The notes beneath the pieces were generated by a model, which saw only the letters and a list, made by a program, of their open reading frames with translations, was not told where the DNA came from and did not search any database. 51,652 nucleotides of DNA, from the NCBI GenBank assembly GCA_945861645.1, contig CAMAVZ010000014.1, positions 1 to 51,652 of the forward strand. The letters run 5' to 3'. Below, piece by piece: positions 2,667 to 17,793 of the stretch. Source of the DNA: Opitutus sp. GAS368. GTDB taxonomy: Bacteria > Verrucomicrobiota > Verrucomicrobiia > Opitutales > Opitutaceae. How positions within the stretch are numbered: position 1 is the stretch's first letter; each line of letters opens with the position of its first letter. Position numbers and translations under genes: made by a program.

Positions 2667-3596
2667 TTAAAGAGCCGGAAGCGTGATCCCAAAAGCGGTG
2701 GCCGGGGCGGTGGACCAGAAATTACGCGCGGCTTCGAGCGTTAGGTTGAGCCAATCAGCGATGTGGCGCACGCCGACATCGGGGGTTAGCGTGGAGCCTG
2801 CAAAATTTTTCTCGCCGGGCTGCCGCGCCACACCATCCGCGCCAACGGCAATAAGGTGCGGTCCGATGGTGTAGCGACCGGGTGGGGCGCCCGCGCCCGC
2901 CATGGCATCAGTCGTGAAGAGGACGCGACTGGTAGGTTTGGCGCGGACAAAATTCTTGAGCACCCCTTTGGGCAAATGAATCCCGTCGGGAATGAAGCAG
3001 GCGGTGAGCTCGTCTCGAGCGAGAAGGCGTTGGACGATGTTGTCATGACGCGGCAGTTCGAGCGGACAGCCGTTGCCGAGGTGCGTGCAGAAACGGGCGC
3101 CAGCGCGAATAGCCGCGTCGATCTCGGCCTCGCTCGCGTTGGTGTGGCCAAGGGAGACGTGCACGCCTTGTCGTGTGACCGCAGCGATAAATTCAGCACT
3201 GCCTGGCCACTCGGGAGCGAGGGTGATGAGGCGGAGGCGGCCTTGAGCCGCAGCTTGGAGTCGCTCGTAATCTGCAAAGGTAGGTGCCCGCATGGGTCCC
3301 GCAGGATGGGCTCCGCGATAGCCGGGGGTGGGACTGAGCCAGGGCCCCTCGAGGTGATAACCTAAAATTGTGGCGCCGGCCGACGGCACGGTGGTGCACA
3401 ATTTTTCTAGAGCGGCAAAGCGGCGGCACAGTGCATCGACTTCATCGGTGATGAGCGTAGCAAAAATCCCGGAGGTGCCGTGGCGACGCAGTGCGGCGAC
3501 GGCGTGCGTAAATTCTGTCGAGGTGAGGTCGTTGCGTTGAAAATCAACTCCGCCAAAACCATTAACTTGGAAATCGAAAAGCCCAGCTGCGTTCAT
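2667..3596 (-). CDS. nagA: N-acetylglucosamine-6-phosphate deacetylase
   Basis: GLFDFQVNGFGG, HLEGPW, GAH, TLAPE, SLGH, THLGNG, DGIH, TDAM, AGS motifs. Start moved to the ATG at 3596, which overlaps the upstream stop (ATGA). Confidence 0.9.
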   Translation of the reverse strand: MNAAGLFDFQVNGFGGVDFQRNDLTSTEFTHAVAALRRHGTSGIFATLITDEVDALCRRFAALEKLCTTVPSAGATILGYHLEGPWLSPTPGYRGAHPAGPMRAPTFADYERLQAAAQGRLRLITLAPEWPGSAEFIAAVTRQGVHVSLGHTNASEAEIDAAIRAGARFCTHLGNGCPLELPRHDNIVQRLLARDELTACFIPDGIHLPKGVLKNFVRAKPTSRVLFTTDAMAGAGAPPGRYTIGPHLIAVGADGVARQPGEKNFAGSTLTPDVGVRHIADWLNLTLEAARNFWSTAPATAFGITLPAL

Positions 3597-6163
3597 TTGA
3601 TCAGGTTGAGTTCTTCTTGGCTCCACGCATCGCTATGCTGTTTGGTCGCCGTGCGAATCGCTGTGACCTGGGCGGGATCGACGGGCGAAGCGTCGTGGCC
3701 CCACTCGCGGCGGATGTAGGTAAGAATTGAGGCAATCTGGTTGTCGTCGAGATACCCTTGGGCGGGCATTTCACCAGCGTGGATGCGATTGGCGACCTTG
3801 ATGGGACCGCGAACGCCGTGCAGAACGATGCGCACGGCGCGTTCAGGGGAGCCGAGAGCCCATTCGGAATCAAGCAACGGGGGGGCGAGTCCGTCGAGAC
3901 CACGTCCATTGGTTTGGTGGCACAAAGCGCACACGGCGGTGAATAAAATTTTTCCAGCCGCAAAACGCTGTTGCTGTTCTTCAGTGAGCGCGGGCACGGC
4001 GGCGACATCGGCCAAACCGGTTTTTCCAGGCCAGACCACGATCGCCTTTAGTTTATCAAGCGCGACGGCGAGTGCGGGATTTTTTGTGAGGAGGTTCCAA
4101 CCCGCGGGCTCATGGGTAAAAGCCAGCGGTCGACGAGAGCCGTTGACCCCAGCGATCATACCGTTGAGCAACGCTACGACGCGAGCGCTGCTGGGCGATT
4201 CGGCAGCCGTGAGAGCAAGGAGGCGCTCGATTCGCGTGGTTTCGCGCGAAGCAAAGATGCCATTGGCCAGACCAGCCAGCAGGGAGTTCGCAGGGACATC
4301 GTCGGGGAACCACGCAGGATTTGCGATGAGTCGCTCAAGCAACGGCAGTTCGCGCTCACCGACGCCGCTCAGGAAGGCTTCGCGTAAATAGGTGTTCTGC
4401 GGATGAGTGCGGACGATATCCGCGAGCGCTAGGTCAGTCGAAAGTTCGCCGTGTTCGCCCAGCGACAGCACGGCCTGCAACTGGACTTCGGCCGAGGCAG
4501 CGGAGGCCAGCGGTAAAAGTTGGGCCACGAGTTCGGCGCGGCCGCGCGGATCTTTTAAAAAGCGTTCGCTGAGACGAATGGCGGAGGCACGGACGATCGG
4601 ATCAAGATCAGTCAACGCGTGCACGACACTCGCGCGATCCAGTGCGCCCATGCCGTCGAGGGTCCAGAGAGCTTGCATCCGACCAAGTGGTTGCGGACTG
4701 GTGAGGATCAGCTGACGGATCGAGGGCGCGAGGGTTGCGTCGCGGCCTTCCACGAGGAGCCGTTGAGCTGTTTCGCGCCACCAAGAGTTGGGATGCGCGA
4801 GCCGCTCGACCCATTGCGCGGAGGTCAGCGTGGGGAATGGGGCAAGCCGTGGGGTAGGGCGATCGCTGGGGACGAGGCGGTAAATACGACCGAGATGTTG
4901 GGGGTCAGCCAGGTGACGAGATTCGCTTTGTTGGCGCAGGTAACTGGTCAGAGAAATTCGGTGCTGAATGACGCCGCGGTAAAAATCGATGAAGTAAAGT
5001 GCCCCATCTGGACCGGTGGTGAAACCAACGGGACGAAAACGCTCGTCGGTGGAAGCGATGAATTCCTGTTGTTGATACGCGTTACGGCCGATGAGCGTGC
5101 CTTGGCCGGCGGTAAGAATAGTGCGGCGGACAAGATTGCCGGCCGGTTCAGCGACAAAAACGTTGCCATAAAATTCTGGCATGAGGTCGCCGCGATACAC
5201 CCAGGGTGAGTTAGCCGCGGTAAATTCCTTGAGCTTGCCGTCGCGCAGAAAATCAGGGCGATAGCCGCGGTTGATGCCGGGGTTGACGCGAATGGGCCAG
5301 ACGAAGAAATTTTCAGCCGCATTGACATTGGTCCCGGCGAGGTAACGAAGGTTGGGGTTACGTTGGAGATAATCCGAGGGGATGATATCGACGCGTAGCG
5401 GGTCGCTGTTGGAGCCATGGAAGAGGTGGCCGAAGTTATCCTGACTGAGTCCCCATTGGCCGCGAAAGAAGGTGCTGGCGGTTTCCCAGGTGCCATTGTT
5501 GTAGCGGAATTTTTTTGTGTAGGCCGCGCTGTAAATCCAGTTGTCCTGCGCCCAGAGCAAGTTGTTGGGGGCGCGCTCGGGATTGGCGAGGAAAGGTCGC
5601 TTGGGATCAACTTTTACGCCGTAGTCGGTGGCGACGACGGTCTTTTGGTCTGCTTTGCCATCGCCGTTGGTATCGCGCCAGAAGGCGAGTTCGGGCGGAG
5701 CGCCGACCAACACCCCATCGCCGACGAGGGTGATGGCGCGCGGTAGCACGAGGTTATCGACGAAGACCTGCGAGTCATCGTAGCGGCCGTCGCCATCACG
5801 ATCGGTCAGAACCACGACGCGACCGACGGGGGCGTCTTCGCCGTTGCCATCCAGGTCGGGCATGTAACCGCGCATCTCGACGACCCACATGCGACCATCG
5901 GGCCCGAAGGTCATGGCCACCGGATCTTGCACGAGGGGTTCGGCGGCGGCGATTTCCAGTTTAAACCCAGGCATGAGCGTGAAGGCCTGGAGCGCCTCTT
6001 CGGGCGTTAGGGCGGGAGCTGCTGGAATTTGATCGGCTGGTACGATTGGTACCTGCGGGGCGCCGAGTTTATCGGCGTTATCGCCGATCTGGGCGCGAGC
6101 CAGCGATGCGCTGGCAAAAATAACGAGCAGAAGGAAAATGAGCGAGCGAGGCAGCGAGATCAT
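3593..6163 (-). CDS. PVC-type heme-binding CxxCH protein (signal peptide, glucose/sorbosone-dehydrogenase-like propeller, HEAT-like repeats, C-terminal cytochrome c)
   Basis: GFKLEIAAAEPLVQDPVAMTFGPDGRMWVVEM, DRDGDG, STDERFRPV, GPDGALY, GRIYRL, HPNSWWRETAQRLL, CALCH and a distal Met (MPAQG). Confidence 0.88.
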   Translation of the reverse strand: MISLPRSLIFLLLVIFASASLARAQIGDNADKLGAPQVPIVPADQIPAAPALTPEEALQAFTLMPGFKLEIAAAEPLVQDPVAMTFGPDGRMWVVEMRGYMPDLDGNGEDAPVGRVVVLTDRDGDGRYDDSQVFVDNLVLPRAITLVGDGVLVGAPPELAFWRDTNGDGKADQKTVVATDYGVKVDPKRPFLANPERAPNNLLWAQDNWIYSAAYTKKFRYNNGTWETASTFFRGQWGLSQDNFGHLFHGSNSDPLRVDIIPSDYLQRNPNLRYLAGTNVNAAENFFVWPIRVNPGINRGYRPDFLRDGKLKEFTAANSPWVYRGDLMPEFYGNVFVAEPAGNLVRRTILTAGQGTLIGRNAYQQQEFIASTDERFRPVGFTTGPDGALYFIDFYRGVIQHRISLTSYLRQQSESRHLADPQHLGRIYRLVPSDRPTPRLAPFPTLTSAQWVERLAHPNSWWRETAQRLLVEGRDATLAPSIRQLILTSPQPLGRMQALWTLDGMGALDRASVVHALTDLDPIVRASAIRLSERFLKDPRGRAELVAQLLPLASAASAEVQLQAVLSLGEHGELSTDLALADIVRTHPQNTYLREAFLSGVGERELPLLERLIANPAWFPDDVPANSLLAGLANGIFASRETTRIERLLALTAAESPSSARVVALLNGMIAGVNGSRRPLAFTHEPAGWNLLTKNPALAVALDKLKAIVVWPGKTGLADVAAVPALTEEQQQRFAAGKILFTAVCALCHQTNGRGLDGLAPPLLDSEWALGSPERAVRIVLHGVRGPIKVANRIHAGEMPAQGYLDDNQIASILTYIRREWGHDASPVDPAQVTAIRTATKQHSDAWSQEELNLIK

Positions 6164-8908: not shown

Positions 8909-9547
8909 TTAATTACCGGCGGTCGACCGCGTTGTAATTCTATTATGCCGCGCGGCCATCGCCCAAGCGACCAGGGCATACGCCGCGCTCGCCACATGGG
9001 CGCTTGTTGCTACCTGAATGCTGGGATCATCAAACTGAATCATGCCGCCGCCGCGGCCGCCTTGAATGATTTCAAAAATAATTTCCCCCACATAAATGAC
9101 GAGCACGCCGGGCCAGAACCAATCCGACCATTGCCGCTGCCAACCTTGGGCGGCCCAATAAAGCAGGAGACCGAGATTGACCGCACTGAGGCCGCCGTAT
9201 CGCGCCATGCTGGAATCAAACCCATAGATGATCGCGGAAATAAAAGCGGGCATCAGCAGGAGCGCCCAGTGACTGAAACGGGCATGGCGAGCTTCGAGGA
9301 GACCGCCCATGATCATAAACAGCCCCGCGTCGGCCAAAAAATGCGGCCAGCCAAAATGGATGAGATGACCGGTCCAGATGCGCCAATATTGACCACTGAG
9401 AAGCAGGGAGCGGTCATAGATCAGCCCATCACGCCAACTCGGATTAAATTGAATGATTAGGGTCGCCAGTCCTGCGCCCATAAACAGCCAAGGCAATTTT
9501 CCGGGATAAAGTTGGCAGAGCGAGCGCAGCGACCGGAGGATAGACAT
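8909..9547 (-). CDS. Rhombosortase-like rhomboid intramembrane serine protease
   Basis: YDR...GQYWRIWTGHLIHFGWPH, catalytic YGGLSA and SAH, multiple TM segments; directly downstream of a GlyGly-CTERM protein. Confidence 0.8.
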   Translation of the reverse strand: MSILRSLRSLCQLYPGKLPWLFMGAGLATLIIQFNPSWRDGLIYDRSLLLSGQYWRIWTGHLIHFGWPHFLADAGLFMIMGGLLEARHARFSHWALLLMPAFISAIIYGFDSSMARYGGLSAVNLGLLLYWAAQGWQRQWSDWFWPGVLVIYVGEIIFEIIQGGRGGGMIQFDDPSIQVATSAHVASAAYALVAWAMAARHNRITTRSTAGN

Positions 9548-9555
9548 GACGCTGA

Positions 9556-11238
9556 TCAAGCAACCCGACGACGCCAGCACCGACCGAGGGCCCAACAGCT
9601 CAGCACCACGCCGAACCAAAGACTGGGGGCGCCGCCACCGCCACCGCCGCCACCGCTACTAGGAGCAGGCGAGGGCGGGACCACTACCGGAGCGGGGGTG
9701 ACGGTTAATGTCGCGCTCGTGCTGGTGACGCTGCCCGCCGTGGTCGTGAGCTTGACGGTGTAATCGCCGGCGTTGCTCGTTTGGACATTGCTCAAACTCA
9801 GCGTGGAGCTCGTGGCTCCGCTCAGGGCGGCATTACCGAGCGACCATTGATACGCGATGGAGTTGGTGCCCGCCGTGGCGGTAACGCTGAAAACAACATT
9901 GGTGCCCGCCGTAGCCGTGGCGCTGGCCGGCTGTGTCGTGATTGCCGGCAGCGTATTAACGGTGAGCGTGGCGGCGCTGCTGGTCACGGCGCCGATGGAA
10001 TTACTGACCGTCACCGTGTAGCTGCCCGCGTCGCCACTGGCGGGCGAGGCGATGGTGTAGGTGGCCGCATTGGCTCCGCTGATACCGTTGACGCCTTTCT
10101 GCCACTGGTAGGTCGGGGTAGGATTGCCCGTGGCCACGACACTAAAGGCAACCGAGGTGCCAGCCGTTACCGTTTTATTCTCGGGTTGAGTCGTAATAAC
10201 AGGCGCGCTGCCGATCGCGATTGTCGTGCTGCTAAGATTAAGCGTCAGGCCGGAGGAGTCAGCGTCGAAACCATCGACGGCGAGGTAATAAGTAGTGCCG
10301 CCGACCGCGTTGAAAGTAACGGTGCTCGCCTGTACTACTCCTTGATCAATATCATCGTTAGAGGCGATCGTGATTAAACTGGCGAGGGCGGTTCCCGTAT
10401 AAATTCCCAGCGTGGTGTCCGAGTAACTGCCGCGGGTATCGATGGTGATCGCCCCGCTGCTCGGGGCAGCCCATTTCCACCACACAGAATGGCCGCCGGC
10501 ATTGTCGGCGTGGCGGGGCTCGCCGATTTCTTTGGTGGCATTGGTGTTGTAACCGGTAACTTTAGCCGTGCCGTTGCTGAGCACGACGGCGATGGCGTTC
10601 GCAAATTTGTCATGAGCGGGAATGCCAAGAGGGCCGTACAGATTCTGCGCCCCATCGGTGTCGTCTGATGTGATGGTATCGATGGTGCTCACGCGACTAT
10701 TCATGACGGCGTTGACCGTCTGAGCATCCTCATCCGGATGATCGAGTCCGAGGGAGTGCCCTAGTTCGTGGATGGCGACGCGCTGCAAGTCGACGATCCC
10801 AGTGCGTTTCACGCCGCGGTAGGAGTCCCACGTGTATTTTGTGTTAAAGACAATATCTGACTCGGTGCGTCGATTGCCGCTGTACCATGTGGTGGTGACT
10901 GCCAGCGTGGTATCGCCGAAAGCTTTGCCAAAAATATCAGCGGCAAAGGTCATTTCATTTAAGCGATTACGATCCGTGGCCTCAGCGGCGGTAGCGAGTT
11001 GGGGGTTGAATTTAAAATTACCGATCACGGCGTTCCATGTTTCCGCAGCGACTTGCGTGCTTGTATTATAGTTGCTGCCGTCGATTAAGGTCGAGGTCGA
11101 CCCGAGCAACACCCGCATCGTGACCTGGCCCGGATTCCACTTGATGGGCAGACCGGTATTTTTGTTTATAATAAAAGAGAAACCCCACGCCTTAGGCGCA
11201 AGACAGACCAAGAGAAGGAGGGCAAAAAAGCGGGCCAC
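9556..11238 (-). CDS. Matrixin (M10/MMP-like) zinc metalloprotease with beta-sandwich domain, two Ig-like domains and a GlyGly-CTERM sorting tail
   Basis: Signal peptide; HELGHSLGLDH zinc motif; Met-turn AVMNS; two P(V/A)ITTQP...YQW...AGxYTV Ig repeats; tail SSGGGGGGGAPSLWFGVVLSCWALGRCWRRRVA. Confidence 0.88.
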   Translation of the reverse strand: MARFFALLLLVCLAPKAWGFSFIINKNTGLPIKWNPGQVTMRVLLGSTSTLIDGSNYNTSTQVAAETWNAVIGNFKFNPQLATAAEATDRNRLNEMTFAADIFGKAFGDTTLAVTTTWYSGNRRTESDIVFNTKYTWDSYRGVKRTGIVDLQRVAIHELGHSLGLDHPDEDAQTVNAVMNSRVSTIDTITSDDTDGAQNLYGPLGIPAHDKFANAIAVVLSNGTAKVTGYNTNATKEIGEPRHADNAGGHSVWWKWAAPSSGAITIDTRGSYSDTTLGIYTGTALASLITIASNDDIDQGVVQASTVTFNAVGGTTYYLAVDGFDADSSGLTLNLSSTTIAIGSAPVITTQPENKTVTAGTSVAFSVVATGNPTPTYQWQKGVNGISGANAATYTIASPASGDAGSYTVTVSNSIGAVTSSAATLTVNTLPAITTQPASATATAGTNVVFSVTATAGTNSIAYQWSLGNAALSGATSSTLSLSNVQTSNAGDYTVKLTTTAGSVTSTSATLTVTPAPVVVPPSPAPSSGGGGGGGGAPSLWFGVVLSCWALGRCWRRRVA

Positions 11239-11242
11239 GGGA

Positions 11243-11857
11243 TTATTTGGCCAATTCCGTTGTCGCCTCGGCGCGCGCGCCCACGGCGCGGATTTTCTGC
11301 GTGAAGGCGGCAGTCGTCATCGGCCGAGCTTGGGGGTTTAAGCGTTTGACCGCATCCCAACTCATTAGGGGCAGAGCGACATCCTGCTCGCTGTAAAGCG
11401 GCAGCCCATTGCTGCGTAGAATCAATTCTTGGCCGGATTGAGCTTCTTTATAAACCACATACAGTCCGTGCATGATACCGACTAGGGGGTAGATTTGCTG
11501 GCCGTTGCCTTGCACAAAAAGAATATTTTCCTCGCCGAGGTGAAATTTCGGCGCGCCCTCGATCACGAGTTCTTCCGCGCCGATGCGGCCCCCGACAAAT
11601 TCCAGTACCAGCGGTTGCGGTGGGGTGCCTTTGATGATCTCGCGTAACTCTAAGGTGACTTTGCTCAGGATGTAAGGGCGGCCCTGATTATCCCGCCATT
11701 CGGGGGTGATGGACGTGATCACCCCGCGCACGACGTAATCAGCCTGACCGACCAATTGTTCAAAATTCGGCGCTTCCACGCTCGTGGCATTACCAGGTGC
11801 CGTGAACAGCCCTAGTCCGGCGATCATTCCCAACATATTCATCAAACGAAAAGACAT
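11243..11857 (-). CDS. Secreted hypothetical protein, possible OB-fold (TIMP/NTR-like) partner of the matrixin
   Basis: Signal peptide ending ...PGNA, then LVGQADYVVRGVI...VTLELREIIKG...GG...GAPKF.LGEENILF; stop lies 4 nt before the matrixin start. Start set at MSFR because the ATG at 11902 abuts the -10 box. Confidence 0.75.
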   Translation of the reverse strand: MSFRLMNMLGMIAGLGLFTAPGNATSVEAPNFEQLVGQADYVVRGVITSITPEWRDNQGRPYILSKVTLELREIIKGTPPQPLVLEFVGGRIGAEELVIEGAPKFHLGEENILFVQGNGQQIYPLVGIMHGLYVVYKEAQSGQELILRSNGLPLYSEQDVALPLMSWDAVKRLNPQARPMTTAAFTQKIRAVGARAEATTELAK

Positions 11858-11903
11858 AGGGCGGTAAGGGGATGGAGCGTTTTTTATCTGAGCTACTGGC
11901 ATT

Positions 11904-11931
11904 ATTCTAGTCGAGAAATACGCTTCGTCAA
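11904..11931 (-). promoter_or_regulatory. Near-consensus sigma70 promoter for the three-gene protease cassette
   Basis: Minus strand TTGACG-16 nt-TAGAAT. Confidence 0.6.
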
Positions 11932-13726: not shown

Positions 13727-14728
13727 ATGGTTTATCTTTTTGAGTTCAAACGCTATTGTCAGCCGCTGCAGGTGCCGCTGCGGACCGCGCATGGCGTCTG
13801 GGCGGAGCGGGAGGGCTTGATTATCAGGCTGGAGGATGAGTCCGGGCAAGTGGGCTACGGGGAGATTGCGCCGATTCCATGGTTTGGCACGGAAACAGTG
13901 GCGGAGGCGGAGGAGATTTGCCGAAAATTTGGTGATCAGATAGACGACGCTCTTTGTGCTGCGGTACCGCTGTCGTTCGGTTGCGTACGTTTTGCCCTCG
14001 CGGCCGCTCGGGCGGAAAAAATAGCTGACGCCTCCGTCGCCAAGTTGCGGTTACCGGTAGCGGCTTTGTTGCCCGCGGGGCGCGCGGCGCTCACAATTTT
14101 ATCGGCTAAACTCGAGGCCGGCTTCTTGGCGTTTAAATGGAAGGTGGGGGTGGGCCAGGCTGATGATGAGCTTGGGCTGCTCGACGATTTATTGGCTCGT
14201 TTGCCCGCCCACGTGAAATTGCGCCTCGATGCTAATGGCAGTTGGACTCGCCGGCAGGCGCAACAGTGGTTGGAGCGCTGCGCGGATCGGCCGATTGAAT
14301 TTATTGAACAGCCAGTCGCACCAACCGAAGAAGATACGCTGCTGGGATTGGTGCGTGATTATCCGGTGACATTGGCGCTGGATGAATCGGTCGTGCGACT
14401 GAATGAGGCGCGCCGTTGGCAAGGGCTCGGTTGGCCGGGGGTGTTTGTGATAAAGCCGGCCCTCGTTGGTCCATTACCCGAATTGGCGGAATGGATTATT
14501 ACGAGCAAAGCAGATGTAGTAATTTCTAGTGCGATCGAAAGTGCCCTGGCGCGCCATTCGATCTTGCGGCTGGTGCTGACGCAGTCGCTCACGCAACGCG
14601 CGCTGGGCTTTGGGCTCGGCGAGATGTTTGGTGAACGGGCTTGGGATGGAGCGATCCTGGGGCCCTTGGCTGACGGCACGCTTTTCACCGCTAATCCGGG
14701 GGAGGCTTTATGGAACGAGCTGAGCTGA
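13727..14728 (+). CDS. menC: o-succinylbenzoate synthase
   Basis: Enolase superfamily: GYGEIAP, FKWKVG, LRLDANG, IEQP, ALDES, VIKP; overlaps menE. Confidence 0.85.
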   Translation: MVYLFEFKRYCQPLQVPLRTAHGVWAEREGLIIRLEDESGQVGYGEIAPIPWFGTETVAEAEEICRKFGDQIDDALCAAVPLSFGCVRFALAAARAEKIADASVAKLRLPVAALLPAGRAALTILSAKLEAGFLAFKWKVGVGQADDELGLLDDLLARLPAHVKLRLDANGSWTRRQAQQWLERCADRPIEFIEQPVAPTEEDTLLGLVRDYPVTLALDESVVRLNEARRWQGLGWPGVFVIKPALVGPLPELAEWIITSKADVVISSAIESALARHSILRLVLTQSLTQRALGFGLGEMFGERAWDGAILGPLADGTLFTANPGEALWNELS

Positions 14729-15954
14729 GTGACGCGCTGCGGCCCTGGCGGAGTCGCGATCACAGCGGGCAGTCTGTGGCCCGAACGTATATTGCGGAAG
14801 TTCAGCCAGAAAAATTTATGACCGCCTTCGCTGACGCGGTCGCCGGCTCGGGCGAAATTTTTTTAGGAAATCCGGCGTGGGGAGAGACGGAGCGGGCTTC
14901 GTGGGCCGCGCTCCGTACGGCGGGTGTCGGGACAGCTCCTGCGGCCGGCTTGCCCTTGGGTTGGCTCGGTATTCCTACTGGCGGGACGAGTGGTCAGTTA
15001 AAATTTGCGCGGCACGATCACGAAACCTTAAGCGCAGCGGTGCGCGGTTTCACCCAGCATTTCGGTTTAACGCAGGTGAACGCCGTGGGGGTTTTGCCCC
15101 TGTATCATGTGGGTGGATTAATGGCCTGGTTGCGGTGTGCGCTGACGGGCGGAACCTATCTGGCGTGGGATTGGAAGGCCTTGGAAGGGGGCGGGCGCCC
15201 CGTGCTGCCGGCACGTGCGGAAGGTTGGCTGCTATCGCTCGTGCCGACTCAATTAGAGCGGCTCTTGTCCAGTGCCGACGCGGTGGCTTGGCTCCGTCAG
15301 TTTCGCATAATTTTTATCGGTGGGGCACCGGCGCGGCCCGATTTATTAGAGCAGGCCGCGGCGCTGCGGCTTCCGTTGTCCTTAGGGTACGGCATGACCG
15401 AGACCGCTGCCATGGTAACCGCATTGCGGCCGCAAGATTTTCTGGCGGGTGCTCGGCATAGTGGCGCGGCTCTGCCACATGCCACCTTGAAGTTGGGATC
15501 TGACGGAGTGATCAAAATTGAGAGCGCGTCATTGTTTCGGGGTTATTATCCGGCATGGCGGGAAGTCGCCGCTTTTGAAACGACGGACGATGGGGTGCAG
15601 CCCGCACCTGGGCAGTGGCAGATTTTAGGCCGACGTGATGCGATGATTATCACGGGTGGCGAAAAAGTGTCACCGGTGGAGGTCGAGGCAGTTTTGCGGG
15701 GTAGTGGCGAATTGCGCGACGTCGTTGTCGTCGGAGTGCCCGATCCTGAGTGGGGGCAGCGAGTCGTCGCCGCTTACCCTGATTCTGAACGGCCGAATCT
15801 GGCTAAATTAGCTGCGGTCATCACGCAGTTGCTCGCGCCGGCCCAGCGCCCGAAGCAATTCGTTCCGCTGGGGAGTTGGCCGGTGTCGACGGTGGGTAAA
15901 GTGAATCGGGCCGCGGTCGCTGAGTTGGTCCGCCGGGCGCTCATTGCGTCCTGA
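14710..15954 (+). CDS. menE: o-succinylbenzoate-CoA ligase (short AMP-binding enzyme)
   Basis: PTGGTSGQLK, LPLYHVGGL, SLVPTQL, YGMTET, GRRDAMIITGGEKV, DPEWGQ. Confidence 0.82.
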   Translation: MERAELSDALRPWRSRDHSGQSVARTYIAEVQPEKFMTAFADAVAGSGEIFLGNPAWGETERASWAALRTAGVGTAPAAGLPLGWLGIPTGGTSGQLKFARHDHETLSAAVRGFTQHFGLTQVNAVGVLPLYHVGGLMAWLRCALTGGTYLAWDWKALEGGGRPVLPARAEGWLLSLVPTQLERLLSSADAVAWLRQFRIIFIGGAPARPDLLEQAAALRLPLSLGYGMTETAAMVTALRPQDFLAGARHSGAALPHATLKLGSDGVIKIESASLFRGYYPAWREVAAFETTDDGVQPAPGQWQILGRRDAMIITGGEKVSPVEVEAVLRGSGELRDVVVVGVPDPEWGQRVVAAYPDSERPNLAKLAAVITQLLAPAQRPKQFVPLGSWPVSTVGKVNRAAVAELVRRALIAS

Positions 15955-16032: not shown

Positions 16033-17793
16033 GTGAATAAAACTGAAATCGCCGCGGTGCTCACCGAGATTGGTACAATGATGGAATTGAAGGGAGAGAA
16101 TCCCTTTAAAATTCGCGCCTATCAGGCGGGGGCTCGTTTGCTGGAGACCCTCAGCGAGGAGGAAATAGCGACGCGCGTCGCGGCCGGGACGCTCGATGAA
16201 GTGAAGGGTATTGGCGAAGCGCTGGCCCAAAAAATTACGGAACTACACACCACGGGCGCATTGGAATTTCATGCAACGCTCAAGGCTTCAATCCCCGCCG
16301 GCTTATTCGATATTTTATCGATCCCCGGGGTTGGTCCGAAGAAAATTCACGCCCTGCGGGACCAGCTCGGCATCGATTCCATTGCGAAATTGCAGCAAGC
16401 TTGTCTCGATGGACGCATTGCCGAACTCGCTGGCTTTGGGAATAAATCTCAGGAGAAAATCCTCGAAGGCATTCGCAATCGGGAAAAATATGGTCGGCGG
16501 CATCGGTGGGCCGATGCCTTTGTTGTGGCCGAGCCCATTCTCGCCGGCTTGCGTCAGCTACCCCAGGTGTTGCGGGCAGAGCATGCCGGTAGTTTGCGGC
16601 GCCGCATGGAGACGGTGGGGGATTTGGATTTTCTGGTGGCGACGAACGATCCCCAGCCGGTGACCGCTTGGTTTGTGGCGTGTCCGGGAGTTGTTGAAAT
16701 TACGGCCCACGGAGAAACGAAAGCGAGCGTGCGCCTCGCTTCTGGGATTCAGGCGGATTTACGGTTGGTGCCGCCCGAGCAATTTATTTTTGCGCTGCAT
16801 CATTTCACGGGGTCGAAAGATCACAATGTCGCGATGCGGCATCGGGCCTTGCAGCGCGGCTTATCGATGAGCGAATGGGGGCTCGTGCCCTCAGCCGGGG
16901 AGGGCACCGCCAAGGAGAAGGCCGAAGTTCGCGGCCGCCAGACGGAGATCACGTCTGAAGAACAACTTTTTAGCGCTTTGGCTTTGGCTTTTATTCCTCC
17001 CGAGTTGCGCGAAGGGCTGGGGGAGATCGAGGCCGCCGAAAGTAATACGCTGCCGCGTTTGGTGGAAGCGGGTGACATTCGGGGTGTTTTCCATAATCAC
17101 ACCACCGCTTCGGATGGACATAATACGCTCGAGGAAATGACCGCGGCGGCCCAAGCCCTCGGCTTTGACTATCTCGGCATTGCGGATCATTCCAAATCAA
17201 GCGTGCAGGCCCGCGGTTTGACTGAAGAGCGACTGCGCGAGCAAATCGCCGCGATTAAAAAACTCAACGCAACGGGGCAATTTAAGTGTCATGTCTTCAG
17301 TGGCACGGAATGCGATATTTTGCCGGACGGTCGGCTCGATTTTTCTGACGAATTATTGGCCGAGCTTGATTACGTGGTGGTGTCGGTGCACAGCGCCTTC
17401 AACCAAGGGCGGGATGGAATGACGGCGCGCATAATTCGGGCGATTGAAAATCCCCAGACCACGATGCTGGGCCATTTGACCGGGCGGTTGTTGTTGGAAC
17501 GCGAAGGCTATGAGGTCGATACCGAGAAGGTTATTGCGGCGGCGATCGCCCATCATGTCATCATCGAGTTGAATGCCAGTCCTTGGCGGCTAGATCTGGA
17601 TTGGCGTTTCTGGCGCCAAGCCGCGGAGCGTGGGCTACTGTGCTCGATTAATCCCGATGCCCACCGGACTACGGGGCTGGCAGATTTTCGCGTTGGTGTG
17701 AGTGCCGCCCGCAAGGGCTGGTTAACGCCGGCACACATTCTTAACACTCGGCCCTTGACTGAAGTGCAGCGGTGGCTCGCGGCGCGGCGCTAA
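16033..17793 (+). CDS. polX: DNA polymerase X with PHP 3'-5' exonuclease domain
   Basis: GENPFKIRAY, HhH motifs, AGSLRR..ETVGDLDFL, ADLR, HFTGSKDHN; PHP motifs HNHTTASDG, DHS, NPDAH. Confidence 0.93.
   Translation: MNKTEIAAVLTEIGTMMELKGENPFKIRAYQAGARLLETLSEEEIATRVAAGTLDEVKGIGEALAQKITELHTTGALEFHATLKASIPAGLFDILSIPGVGPKKIHALRDQLGIDSIAKLQQACLDGRIAELAGFGNKSQEKILEGIRNREKYGRRHRWADAFVVAEPILAGLRQLPQVLRAEHAGSLRRRMETVGDLDFLVATNDPQPVTAWFVACPGVVEITAHGETKASVRLASGIQADLRLVPPEQFIFALHHFTGSKDHNVAMRHRALQRGLSMSEWGLVPSAGEGTAKEKAEVRGRQTEITSEEQLFSALALAFIPPELREGLGEIEAAESNTLPRLVEAGDIRGVFHNHTTASDGHNTLEEMTAAAQALGFDYLGIADHSKSSVQARGLTEERLREQIAAIKKLNATGQFKCHVFSGTECDILPDGRLDFSDELLAELDYVVVSVHSAFNQGRDGMTARIIRAIENPQTTMLGHLTGRLLLEREGYEVDTEKVIAAAIAHHVIIELNASPWRLDLDWRFWRQAAERGLLCSINPDAHRTTGLADFRVGVSAARKGWLTPAHILNTRPLTEVQRWLAARR

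Follow-up and report, generated by a model that had tools for sequence, protein, structure and literature searches.

A TIMP-like predicted fold in a protein encoded beside a prodomain-less matrixin of Opitutus sp. GAS368: a candidate cognate inhibitor

Introduction

How is a bacterial matrixin that carries no prodomain kept silent on its way to the cell surface, and could the small protein encoded directly ahead of it be responsible? This question is raised by a locus in a window of 51,652 nucleotides, the whole stretch of DNA analysed here, from the genome of the lake bacterium Opitutus sp. GAS368 (assembly GCA_945861645.1, contig CAMAVZ010000014.1; 84% complete). A gene present in a single copy in this genome (11243-11857, minus strand; hereafter the partner gene) is followed, 4 bases after its stop codon, by the GTG start of a gene coding for a matrixin, an enzyme similar to matrix metalloproteinases (MMPs). 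A first-pass annotation, made from the sequence alone, had proposed the partner to be a cognate inhibitor of the enzyme or a prodomain acting in trans. This proposal is now supported on computational grounds, namely by fold prediction, by prediction of the complex and by natural fusions of the two domains. Since the predicted fold is similar to that of tissue inhibitors of metalloproteinases (TIMPs) and the protein is constantly paired with a prodomain-less MMP-like protease, it is probably the matrixin's own inhibitor. On balance, we favour the view that it is a TIMP-like but disulfide-free protein that inhibits its cognate matrixin or keeps it latent, the matrixin being a prodomain-less enzyme sorted to the cell surface.

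One account treats TIMPs as an animal family in which a Cys-X-Cys motif is a key feature for inhibition (PMC4860685), and another recognises no endogenous protein inhibitors of MMPs besides them (PMC9890683). The full-text literature on TIMPs or TIMP-like proteins in bacteria, as far as the texts were accessible, yielded one relevant report, which describes the Listeria Mtz-Tim pair: a metzincin and a lipoprotein called TIMP-like on the basis of Phyre2 (Boichis et al., 2021; PMC8235301). The authors of that report came across no previous mention of TIMP-like proteins in bacteria.

The partner is predicted to adopt a TIMP-like fold

The longest open reading frame (ORF) at the partner locus (11243-11902, minus strand) comprises 219 codons from its first ATG at 11902, and its product, P0001, provides the residue numbering used here; the stop codon lies at 11243-11245. 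The start at 11857 (Met16) was preferred, since the closest homologues are 204 amino acids long and begin at that Met, which bears out the 204-residue gene called in the first-pass annotation. Met16-Ala39 constitute a typical Sec signal peptide (MSFRLMNMLGMIAGLGLFTAPGNA; 11786-11857, minus strand), and the (-3,-1) rule alone, with no signal-peptide predictor, places the signal peptidase I cut between Ala39 and Thr40. The mature partner (Thr40-Lys219) comprises 180 residues and not a single cysteine; the protein has therefore no lipobox and, as had been noted by eye, none of the TIMP cysteines. The strings TSVEAP, ADYVVRGVI, VTLELREIIKG and GEENILF, in which an ordering parallel to that of TIMPs had been seen, are all present in the translation. 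The ORF is not a chance one, because it has 105 matches in the 90% library and 4,085 representatives in the 50% library, and it is covered by contigs from four RNA libraries.

Two models of the partner were generated with AlphaFold2, one from 32 sequences (predicted local distance difference test, pLDDT, 84.9) and a second one from 102 sequences for the mature protein alone (pLDDT 94.9; predicted template modelling score 0.90). In Foldseek searches against the Protein Data Bank (PDB), TIMP-2 (1br9) was the top match for both models (E 1.6e-4 and 3.4e-4), and below it were TIMP-1, agrin NtA, C345C and the netrin-like (NTR) module of PCOLCE. VIA-align, a tool other than Foldseek, was run against 48,161 representative chains and placed N-TIMP-3 (3cki_B) first (Z 8.9, root-mean-square deviation 2.8 Å, 114 of 121 residues); over the two models, this match had a Z of 8.6-8.9 with 114-117 of the 121 residues aligned. 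Ranks 1-12 were all NTR-type modules, including at rank 11 a hookworm protein (3nsw) that we take to be netrin-like, and the first other oligonucleotide/oligosaccharide-binding (OB) fold had a Z of 6.0. All 50 rows of a second fold search, carried out with the better model, were TIMP, NtA, C345C or PCOLCE NTR modules. Other NTR modules matched as well as TIMPs (NtA 1pxu, Z 8.6; C3/C5 C345C, Z 7-8), none of them by sequence.

The models thus predict that the partner adopts the TIMP/NTR variant of the OB fold. The earlier assignment to this fold, which had been made by eye, was borne out by structure prediction and by four fold searches, each headed by TIMP/NTR modules. What carries this predicted assignment is that the lists agree and that the N-TIMP domain is covered almost completely. 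Neither potempin A nor serralysin inhibitors nor other bacterial inhibitor folds were among the listed matches, which still leaves a resemblance to them possible.

The predicted mature N-terminus is conserved and aligns with TIMP residue 1

The predicted cleavage site is well kept in the partner family. Among 102 members, position -1 is A in 89, G in 11 and S in one (101 of 102), and position -3 is A, L, V, G, S or T in 97. Behind it lies a conserved segment (TSVEAPNF, Thr40-Phe47; 11762-11785, minus strand), which is a candidate zinc-directed N-terminal ridge: in the same 102 members, mature position +2 is T or S in 95, +3 is V in 94, +5 is P in 77 and A in 19, +6 is P in 94, and +8 is F in 101. 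The first eight mature residues rank among the best conserved of the family. Since mature N-termini are usually free to vary, this segment asks for a function. The mature part holds no cysteine in 40 of the 102 members and one in another 40.

In the structural alignments, Thr40 (residue 1 of the second model) is aligned with residue 1 of TIMP-3 (1-173 to 1-121), TIMP-1 (1-173 to 1-125) and TIMP-2 (1-172 to 1-126). The first model gives an equal offset (41-212 to 2-121 and 43-215 to 4-127). Two independent lines of evidence, the predicted cleavage site and the TIMP register, thus point to the same residue. These model-based alignments also support the same register as the TIMP sequence pattern from which the first-pass annotation had started. 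TIMPs carry Ser or Thr at residue 2, as does the partner.

The partner gene is constantly linked to a matrixin gene

Of 79 loci from reference genomes (Opitutaceae), 78 have a matrixin homologue that begins immediately after the partner gene. In L025, which is among them, no more than 18 matrixin residues can be read before the contig end, and in the sole locus without a matrixin (L075) the contig stops 168 bases past the partner gene. Five loci (L036, L042, L060, L074, and L076) contain two tandem partner-matrixin pairs each, and the HExxHxxGxxH motif is kept in 83 of 83 partner-linked catalytic domains. A cultured relative, Oleiharenicola lentus, carries two copies of the pair (L019 and L057). 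In 43 of the 79 loci, the pair is followed by a rhombosortase homologue; none is nearby in the other 36, all of which retain the partner. The constant companion is therefore the matrixin and not the sortase. More distant partner-matrixin pairs were found in two further families of the phylum (L081 and L082).

Distant members of the family (31-44% identical to the query; alignment A6) led to a metagenomic set of 80 loci containing 83 partner genes. A matrixin gene lies directly downstream in 31 of them, upstream on the same strand in 24 and on both sides in two, which amounts to linkage in 57 of 57 decidable copies; the other 26 are on contigs too short, and no copy had room on both sides and no matrixin. 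The protease-first order forms one clade in both the partner and the protease trees.

The clade with the reversed order includes L104, L114, L115, L117, and 20 more metagenomic loci, in which the partner lies about 0.9 kb after the catalytic domain. The two loci with a matrixin on both sides are L101 and L144. One gene was considered as an exception to the linkage (L084:5240-5818, minus strand, genome G048), since a gene for a DsbD-like thiol:disulfide interchange protein lies downstream of it and no matrixin is in view. It was rejected, because the contig ends about 630 bases upstream and a protease-first order is possible.

Both domains also occur in a single protein. A whole-genome search revealed P0260 (L083:3600-5408, minus strand, genome G056), a 602-residue ORF that fuses a partner domain ahead of a matrixin: its residues 30-109 correspond to P0001 residues 48-130 in an hhalign alignment (probability 90.9%, E 1.1e-6), and residues 305-366 are matrixin. 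A second fused protein, P0262, has 606 residues, and both run from a signal peptide through a shortened partner domain and a linker of about 100 residues to the matrixin and a bacterial TSP3 repeat. NCBI's call of the first fusion (P0261, named Kiritimatiellae bacterium) starts 60 residues further in, and it thereby loses the signal peptide and half of the partner domain. A search for longer, fused relatives with P0001 as query gave none among 998 candidates, which is weak evidence. The first-pass annotation had raised the question of natural fusions to matrixins, and P0260/P0261 and P0262 answer it in the affirmative.

The matrixin lacks a prodomain and is predicted to bind the partner across its cleft

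The matrixin gene (9556-11238, minus strand) codes for a 560-residue, M10A-like protein that matches PF00413 with 51.4 bits (cut-off 24) over residues 33-202, so that the MMP-like enzyme previously noted downstream of the partner is confirmed. The protein consists of a signal peptide, a catalytic domain, a PPC-like domain, two Ig domains and a sorting tail, in this order; Ig_3 gave 75.5 bits, and PPC gave 20.4 bits, under its cut-off of 25.9. The catalytic domain (residues 20-210; 10609-11181, minus strand) begins directly after the signal peptide VARFFALLLLVCLAPKAWG. It contains the zinc-binding motif HELGHSLGLDH (residues 157-167; 10738-10770, minus strand), followed by the Met-turn Met179 in NAVMNS. 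In the matrixin alignment A3, H138, E139, H142 and H148 are invariant, and the A3 profile matches human MMP-1, -13, -14 and -16 (best E 5e-10). A cysteine-switch prodomain is absent from the matrixin and no propeptide family matched it. There is also no space for such a prodomain, since position 1 of the Pfam profile is reached just 13 residues after the signal peptide. Having no prodomain, the enzyme would be active once folded in the periplasm. Karilysin, another bacterial MMP-like peptidase, has a prodomain.

The complex was predicted from the catalytic domain (56-row alignment), one zinc, and residues 40-219 of the mature partner (86-row alignment). It scored 0.74 (0.69, 0.77 and 0.74 in the individual runs), against 0.13 for the best of three controls; the mark applied is reached by 58 of 80 solved complexes and by two of 110 mismatched pairs. 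The runs share at least 80% of their contacts, and the pLDDT of the partner was 86-88. The prediction with the matrixin domain, proposed at first pass as a way to check the pair, was thus passed.

On the enzyme side, the predicted interface is formed by fragment residues 82-102 (DIFGKAFGDTTLAVTTTWYSG), which include the edge strand, residues 135-153 (VAIHELGHSLGLDHPDEDA), with the zinc helix and the third His, and residues 161-165, just after the Met-turn (S1' wall). On the partner side it is formed by residues 40-45, 109-116 and 131-144 and a few others. Residues 109-118 (AEELVIEGAP; 11549-11578, minus strand) would constitute the second part of the predicted binding ridge, which pairs with the edge strand of the protease. 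G116 and P118 are nearly invariant in the family, and G104 and G105 are invariant. The prediction, in which zinc contact carries no score, places residues 40-45 over the zinc-binding helix, and residue 1 may reach the zinc.

The partner belongs to a large family without a name

P0001 matched nothing in Pfam (E ≤ 1), in NCBIfam or among PDB sequences (phmmer). In the 90% library, 105 relatives were found at E ≤ 0.001, all of them annotated as "hypothetical protein," and the few with a named source belong to Opitutaceae, Lacunisphaera and Didemnitutus. An exhaustive search of the 1.84 billion representatives of the 50% library gave 4,085 relatives at E ≤ 0.001, 535 at E ≤ 1e-10, and 35 at E ≤ 1e-30. 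The family (alignments A1, A2, and A7) is present in 22 of 301 genomes of the phylum and is concentrated in the window's own family, where 16 of 26 genomes besides G000 contain it. As leads only, the ESM Atlas gave unnamed bacterial clusters in Myxococcota, Pseudomonadota and Acidobacteriota as the nearest; the nearest named ones were a bacterial cluster with PF00965 on 19% of its members (0.86), agrin NtA (0.83) and a nematode NTR cluster (0.82).

A proposed mechanism and the evidence against it

Based on these predictions, we propose the following mechanism as the most likely one. The partner would be a soluble, Sec-exported protein of about 180 residues dedicated to the adjoining matrixin. 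It would bind this enzyme 1:1 across the active-site cleft and keep it latent while the matrixin is en route to rhombosortase processing and cell-surface display. The binding edge would be a two-part ridge made up of the free N-terminal segment generated by signal peptidase (Thr40-Ser-Val-x-Ala/Pro-Pro) and of strand 109-116, and this strand would pair with the edge strand of the protease as the TIMP N-terminus and C-D loop do. That Thr40 chelates the zinc through its alpha-amino group is put forward more tentatively, as a possible part of this mechanism. Inhibition itself, the periplasm as the site of action and a later release of the enzyme are what we infer from the pair. By sequence and cysteines, the partner is outside the TIMP family; by its modelled fold, register, target and predicted binding mode, it is TIMP-like.

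A number of observations weigh against this proposal. The fold scores are middling (Z 8-9, TM-scores 0.40-0.55), and with the fold tool a best Z of 7-8 is typical even of models that have no clear match. Pfam searches with 20 distant members, and then with the 86 members of A2 (E ≤ 10), gave no relevant family, with PF00965 and PF01759 not among the matches, and the A2 profile matched no PDB chain at E ≤ 10. PF00965 had no match in 401 Verrucomicrobiota genomes, and as 14 control genomes were equally silent this says nothing on its absence. At the N-terminus, the disulfides that stiffen the TIMP ridge are absent from the partner, and residue 1 is not invariant (T in 74, M in 12 and L in 11 of the 102 members). 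When partner columns were scanned against protease columns for mutual information with average product correction (130 pairs, effective number about 94), nothing interpretable emerged at either the N-terminus or the active site, and no conclusion is drawn from this.

The predicted complex is open to objections, too. Its contacts with the lowest expected error are those of partner residues 110-115 with fragment residues 95-99 of the matrixin (edge strand) and not those of the N-terminus. The zinc was carried in the job and left out of the score, and the use of our own alignments and of a ligand departs from the calibration of the tool. The result may also reflect likeness in part, because many TIMP-MMP complexes have been solved, although in sequence the partner does not resemble TIMPs. 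The fused proteins do not contain the conserved N-terminal motif, so the association between partner and matrixin does not need it.

Pairwise distances in the partner and protease trees are correlated (r = 0.73; maximum 0.075 over 500 permutations), which only means that the pairs are inherited as units, as they would be in any operon. The partner-matrixin pair is covered by RNA-library contigs from four studies, and four of these contigs bridge the gene junction (11098-11257, 11209-11359, 11194-11426, and 10981-11882); they hint at expression and prove neither transcription nor a single transcript, since DNA may be present in the libraries.

Alternative roles of the partner

The alternative that best withstands these data, which we still regard as rather unlikely, is that the partner is a prodomain supplied in trans or a folding chaperone. 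It would bind the nascent matrixin in the periplasm and help it fold, or keep it latent as a detachable prodomain, its body and strand 109-116 blocking the cleft, and would be degraded or left behind once the enzyme is sorted; the free alpha-amino group would have no special part. The lack of a prodomain in the matrixin fits this role. So do the two fusions, in which the domain is located ahead of the catalytic domain, the usual site of a prodomain, without the N-terminal motif, and the fact that the surest predicted contacts are those of strand 110-115 with the edge strand. However, the conservation of the first eight mature residues would then be unexplained, as would the coincidence of the cleavage site with TIMP residue 1. 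The protease-first order in 24 distant copies of one clade fits a stoichiometric inhibitor at least as well.

An improbable alternative is that the partner is a substrate of the matrixin or an effector released by it, as proposed for the Listeria protein: the matrixin would cleave it, and a fragment, alone or together with the enzyme, would act on the envelope or on other cells. In the accessible part of the Listeria monocytogenes report, Mtz cleaves and releases the lipoprotein Tim, with effects on the cell wall, and inhibition of Mtz by Tim is not shown there (PMC8235301), which also counts against an inhibitory role of our protein. The predicted complex seats the partner in the substrate cleft, as would be expected of a substrate. 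Nevertheless, the partner has neither a lipobox nor an N-terminal stretch of about 50 residues to be removed, since its fold begins at mature residue 1, and a pairing that persists through thousands of clusters and both gene orders would be surprising for a mere substrate.

Least of all do we expect the partner to be an accessory that takes part in sorting, in secretion or in the recruitment of substrates and leaves catalysis untouched, either as an OB-fold adaptor for a glycan or peptide or as an escort that brings the GlyGly-CTERM protein to the rhombosortase or a secretion system. In its favour, the binding modules agrin NtA, C345C and PCOLCE NTR, which are not inhibitors, score as high as TIMPs, and a rhombosortase gene follows the pair here and in the loci counted above. 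Yet the partner persists in the loci where none is nearby and in further tandem pairs, and the predicted interface is the catalytic cleft (in a job run on the catalytic domain alone of the enzyme).

Relation to known inhibitors

If the partner is the inhibitor that we propose, animal TIMPs would be the closest comparison (MEROPS I35, PF00965; 3cki_B for N-TIMP-3, 1br9 for TIMP-2, 6mav_B for TIMP-1). Going by the predictions made for the partner, both share an OB barrel with flanking helices, a matrixin as target, an N-terminus made by signal peptidase at residue 1 and a two-part ridge predicted over the zinc site. In contrast to TIMPs, the partner shows no detectable sequence similarity to them and contains no Cys-x-Cys motif or disulfides. 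It is bacterial and encoded in an operon with its target, its OB hairpins are longer (180 versus about 125 residues), and its inhibitory action is a prediction. It also has no C-terminal TIMP domain: the alignments stop at TIMP residues 121-126, and a few longer ones reach about 147.

Listeria Tim, as described in the sections of the report at hand, is a lipoprotein of a Gram-positive bacterium whose TIMP-like part is exposed after Mtz removes about 50 residues, and its genes are in protease-first order (PMC8235301), whereas the Opitutus partner is predicted to be soluble, with a fold that starts at mature residue 1. Potempin A (PotA) of Tannerella forsythia is, like the partner, a small protein with an OB scaffold encoded immediately upstream of a bacterial MMP-like peptidase, karilysin, which it inhibits. 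By the available portion of the source, PotA protects the cell's own surface proteins, and on co-incubation over hours it stays intact and karilysin stays silent (PMC9890683). It differs from the partner in being a 98-residue outer-membrane lipoprotein with a bilobal mechanism that makes no use of the N-terminus (same portion of PMC9890683), and while potempin A is a lipobox lipoprotein of about 100 residues, the partner has no lipobox and comprises 180 residues when mature.

Serralysin inhibitors (MEROPS I38: Pseudomonas APRin, Serratia/Erwinia Inh) are periplasmic and, like the partner, encoded beside a secreted metzincin. They form an eight-stranded barrel; their N-terminal residues enter the cleft of the enzyme, and the N-terminal amino group reaches the zinc. 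They differ from the partner in fold and in target family (M10B serralysins, with type I export). The Pseudomonas alkaline protease inhibitor is said, in the accessible part of one source, to engage its metzincin similarly to TIMPs (PMC8235301).

If the proposed role is correct, a large bacterial family with a TIMP fold, the same N-terminal register and an obligate linkage to matrixins would provide a missing latency mechanism for bacterial matrixins. It would also offer a disulfide-free, easily expressed scaffold for engineering MMP inhibitors. Thousands of "hypothetical proteins" would receive a name in Verrucomicrobiota and, going by the Atlas leads, in Myxococcota, Acidobacteriota and Pseudomonadota as well, and the origin of the TIMP-MMP pair would become testable. 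A bolder reading, which we hold to be quite unlikely, is that the family shares a very remote but true common ancestry with animal TIMPs and NTR modules. The TIMP fold and its matrixin would then have arisen as a bacterial two-gene operon, with the N-terminus as warhead, before the animal extracellular matrix existed, and animals would have inherited or acquired both and later added the disulfides.

Sorting tail, neighbouring genes and expression

The C-terminus of the matrixin is a putative, GlyGly-CTERM-like sorting tail (9559-9696, minus strand) with a Pro/Ser-rich linker, eight Gly, a hydrophobic stretch (APSLWFGVVLSCWALGRCW) and RRRVA. An NCBIfam search with the 45-residue tail retrieved no model at E ≤ 10; the three parts of the tail are visible by sequence, and they correspond to the Gly-rich motif, hydrophobic helix and basic tail given for GlyGly-CTERM in the available part of PMC6219818. 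A rhombosortase gene adjoins it (longest ORF 8909-9619, minus strand; TIGR03902, 95.7 bits against a cut-off of 84). Its true start is probably further in, since the longest ORF overlaps the end of the matrixin gene by 64 bases. Together, tail and gene would make up a GlyGly-CTERM/rhombosortase system in an Opitutaceae bacterium, with the matrixin as cargo. As far as the accessible parts of PMC6219818 and PMC3237569 go, the system of VesB in Vibrio cholerae is alike in the three parts visible in the tail and in having a rhombosortase gene, and it differs in its cargo, which is a serine protease there and a matrixin with a TIMP-fold partner here.

The ends of the RNA-library contigs at the head of the pair span 11785-11882, and cover is thin upstream of about 11882, where one contig ends with adaptor sequence behind it. 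Contig ends and thin upstream cover together give a weak hint of a transcript start. A promoter-like site (TTGACG-16-TAGAAT; 11904-11931, minus strand) with 10 of 12 matches, itself weak evidence, is located upstream of the pair; it was set aside, since the region has just as many such sites as shuffled sequence leads one to expect, no more than chance. The Gly/Pro run before the matrixin tail (9623-9662) was skipped as a repeat in the read mapping, so cover there cannot be judged.

Upstream of the partner, matrixin and rhombosortase genes lies guaB, and a gene for a major facilitator superfamily transporter lies downstream. Further along the window (13727-15954 and 16033-17793, plus strand), the menaquinone genes menC (o-succinylbenzoate synthase, 323 bits) and menE (433.7 bits, under the model cut-off of 525), which overlap by 19 bases, are followed by a gene for a PolX-type DNA polymerase/exonuclease. 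Another gene (3593-6163, minus strand) codes for an 856-residue protein that combines an N-terminal heme-binding CxxCH domain of the PVC type (TIGR02604, 198 bits) with a ccoP-like cytochrome c part, typical of Planctomycetota-Verrucomicrobiota genomes.

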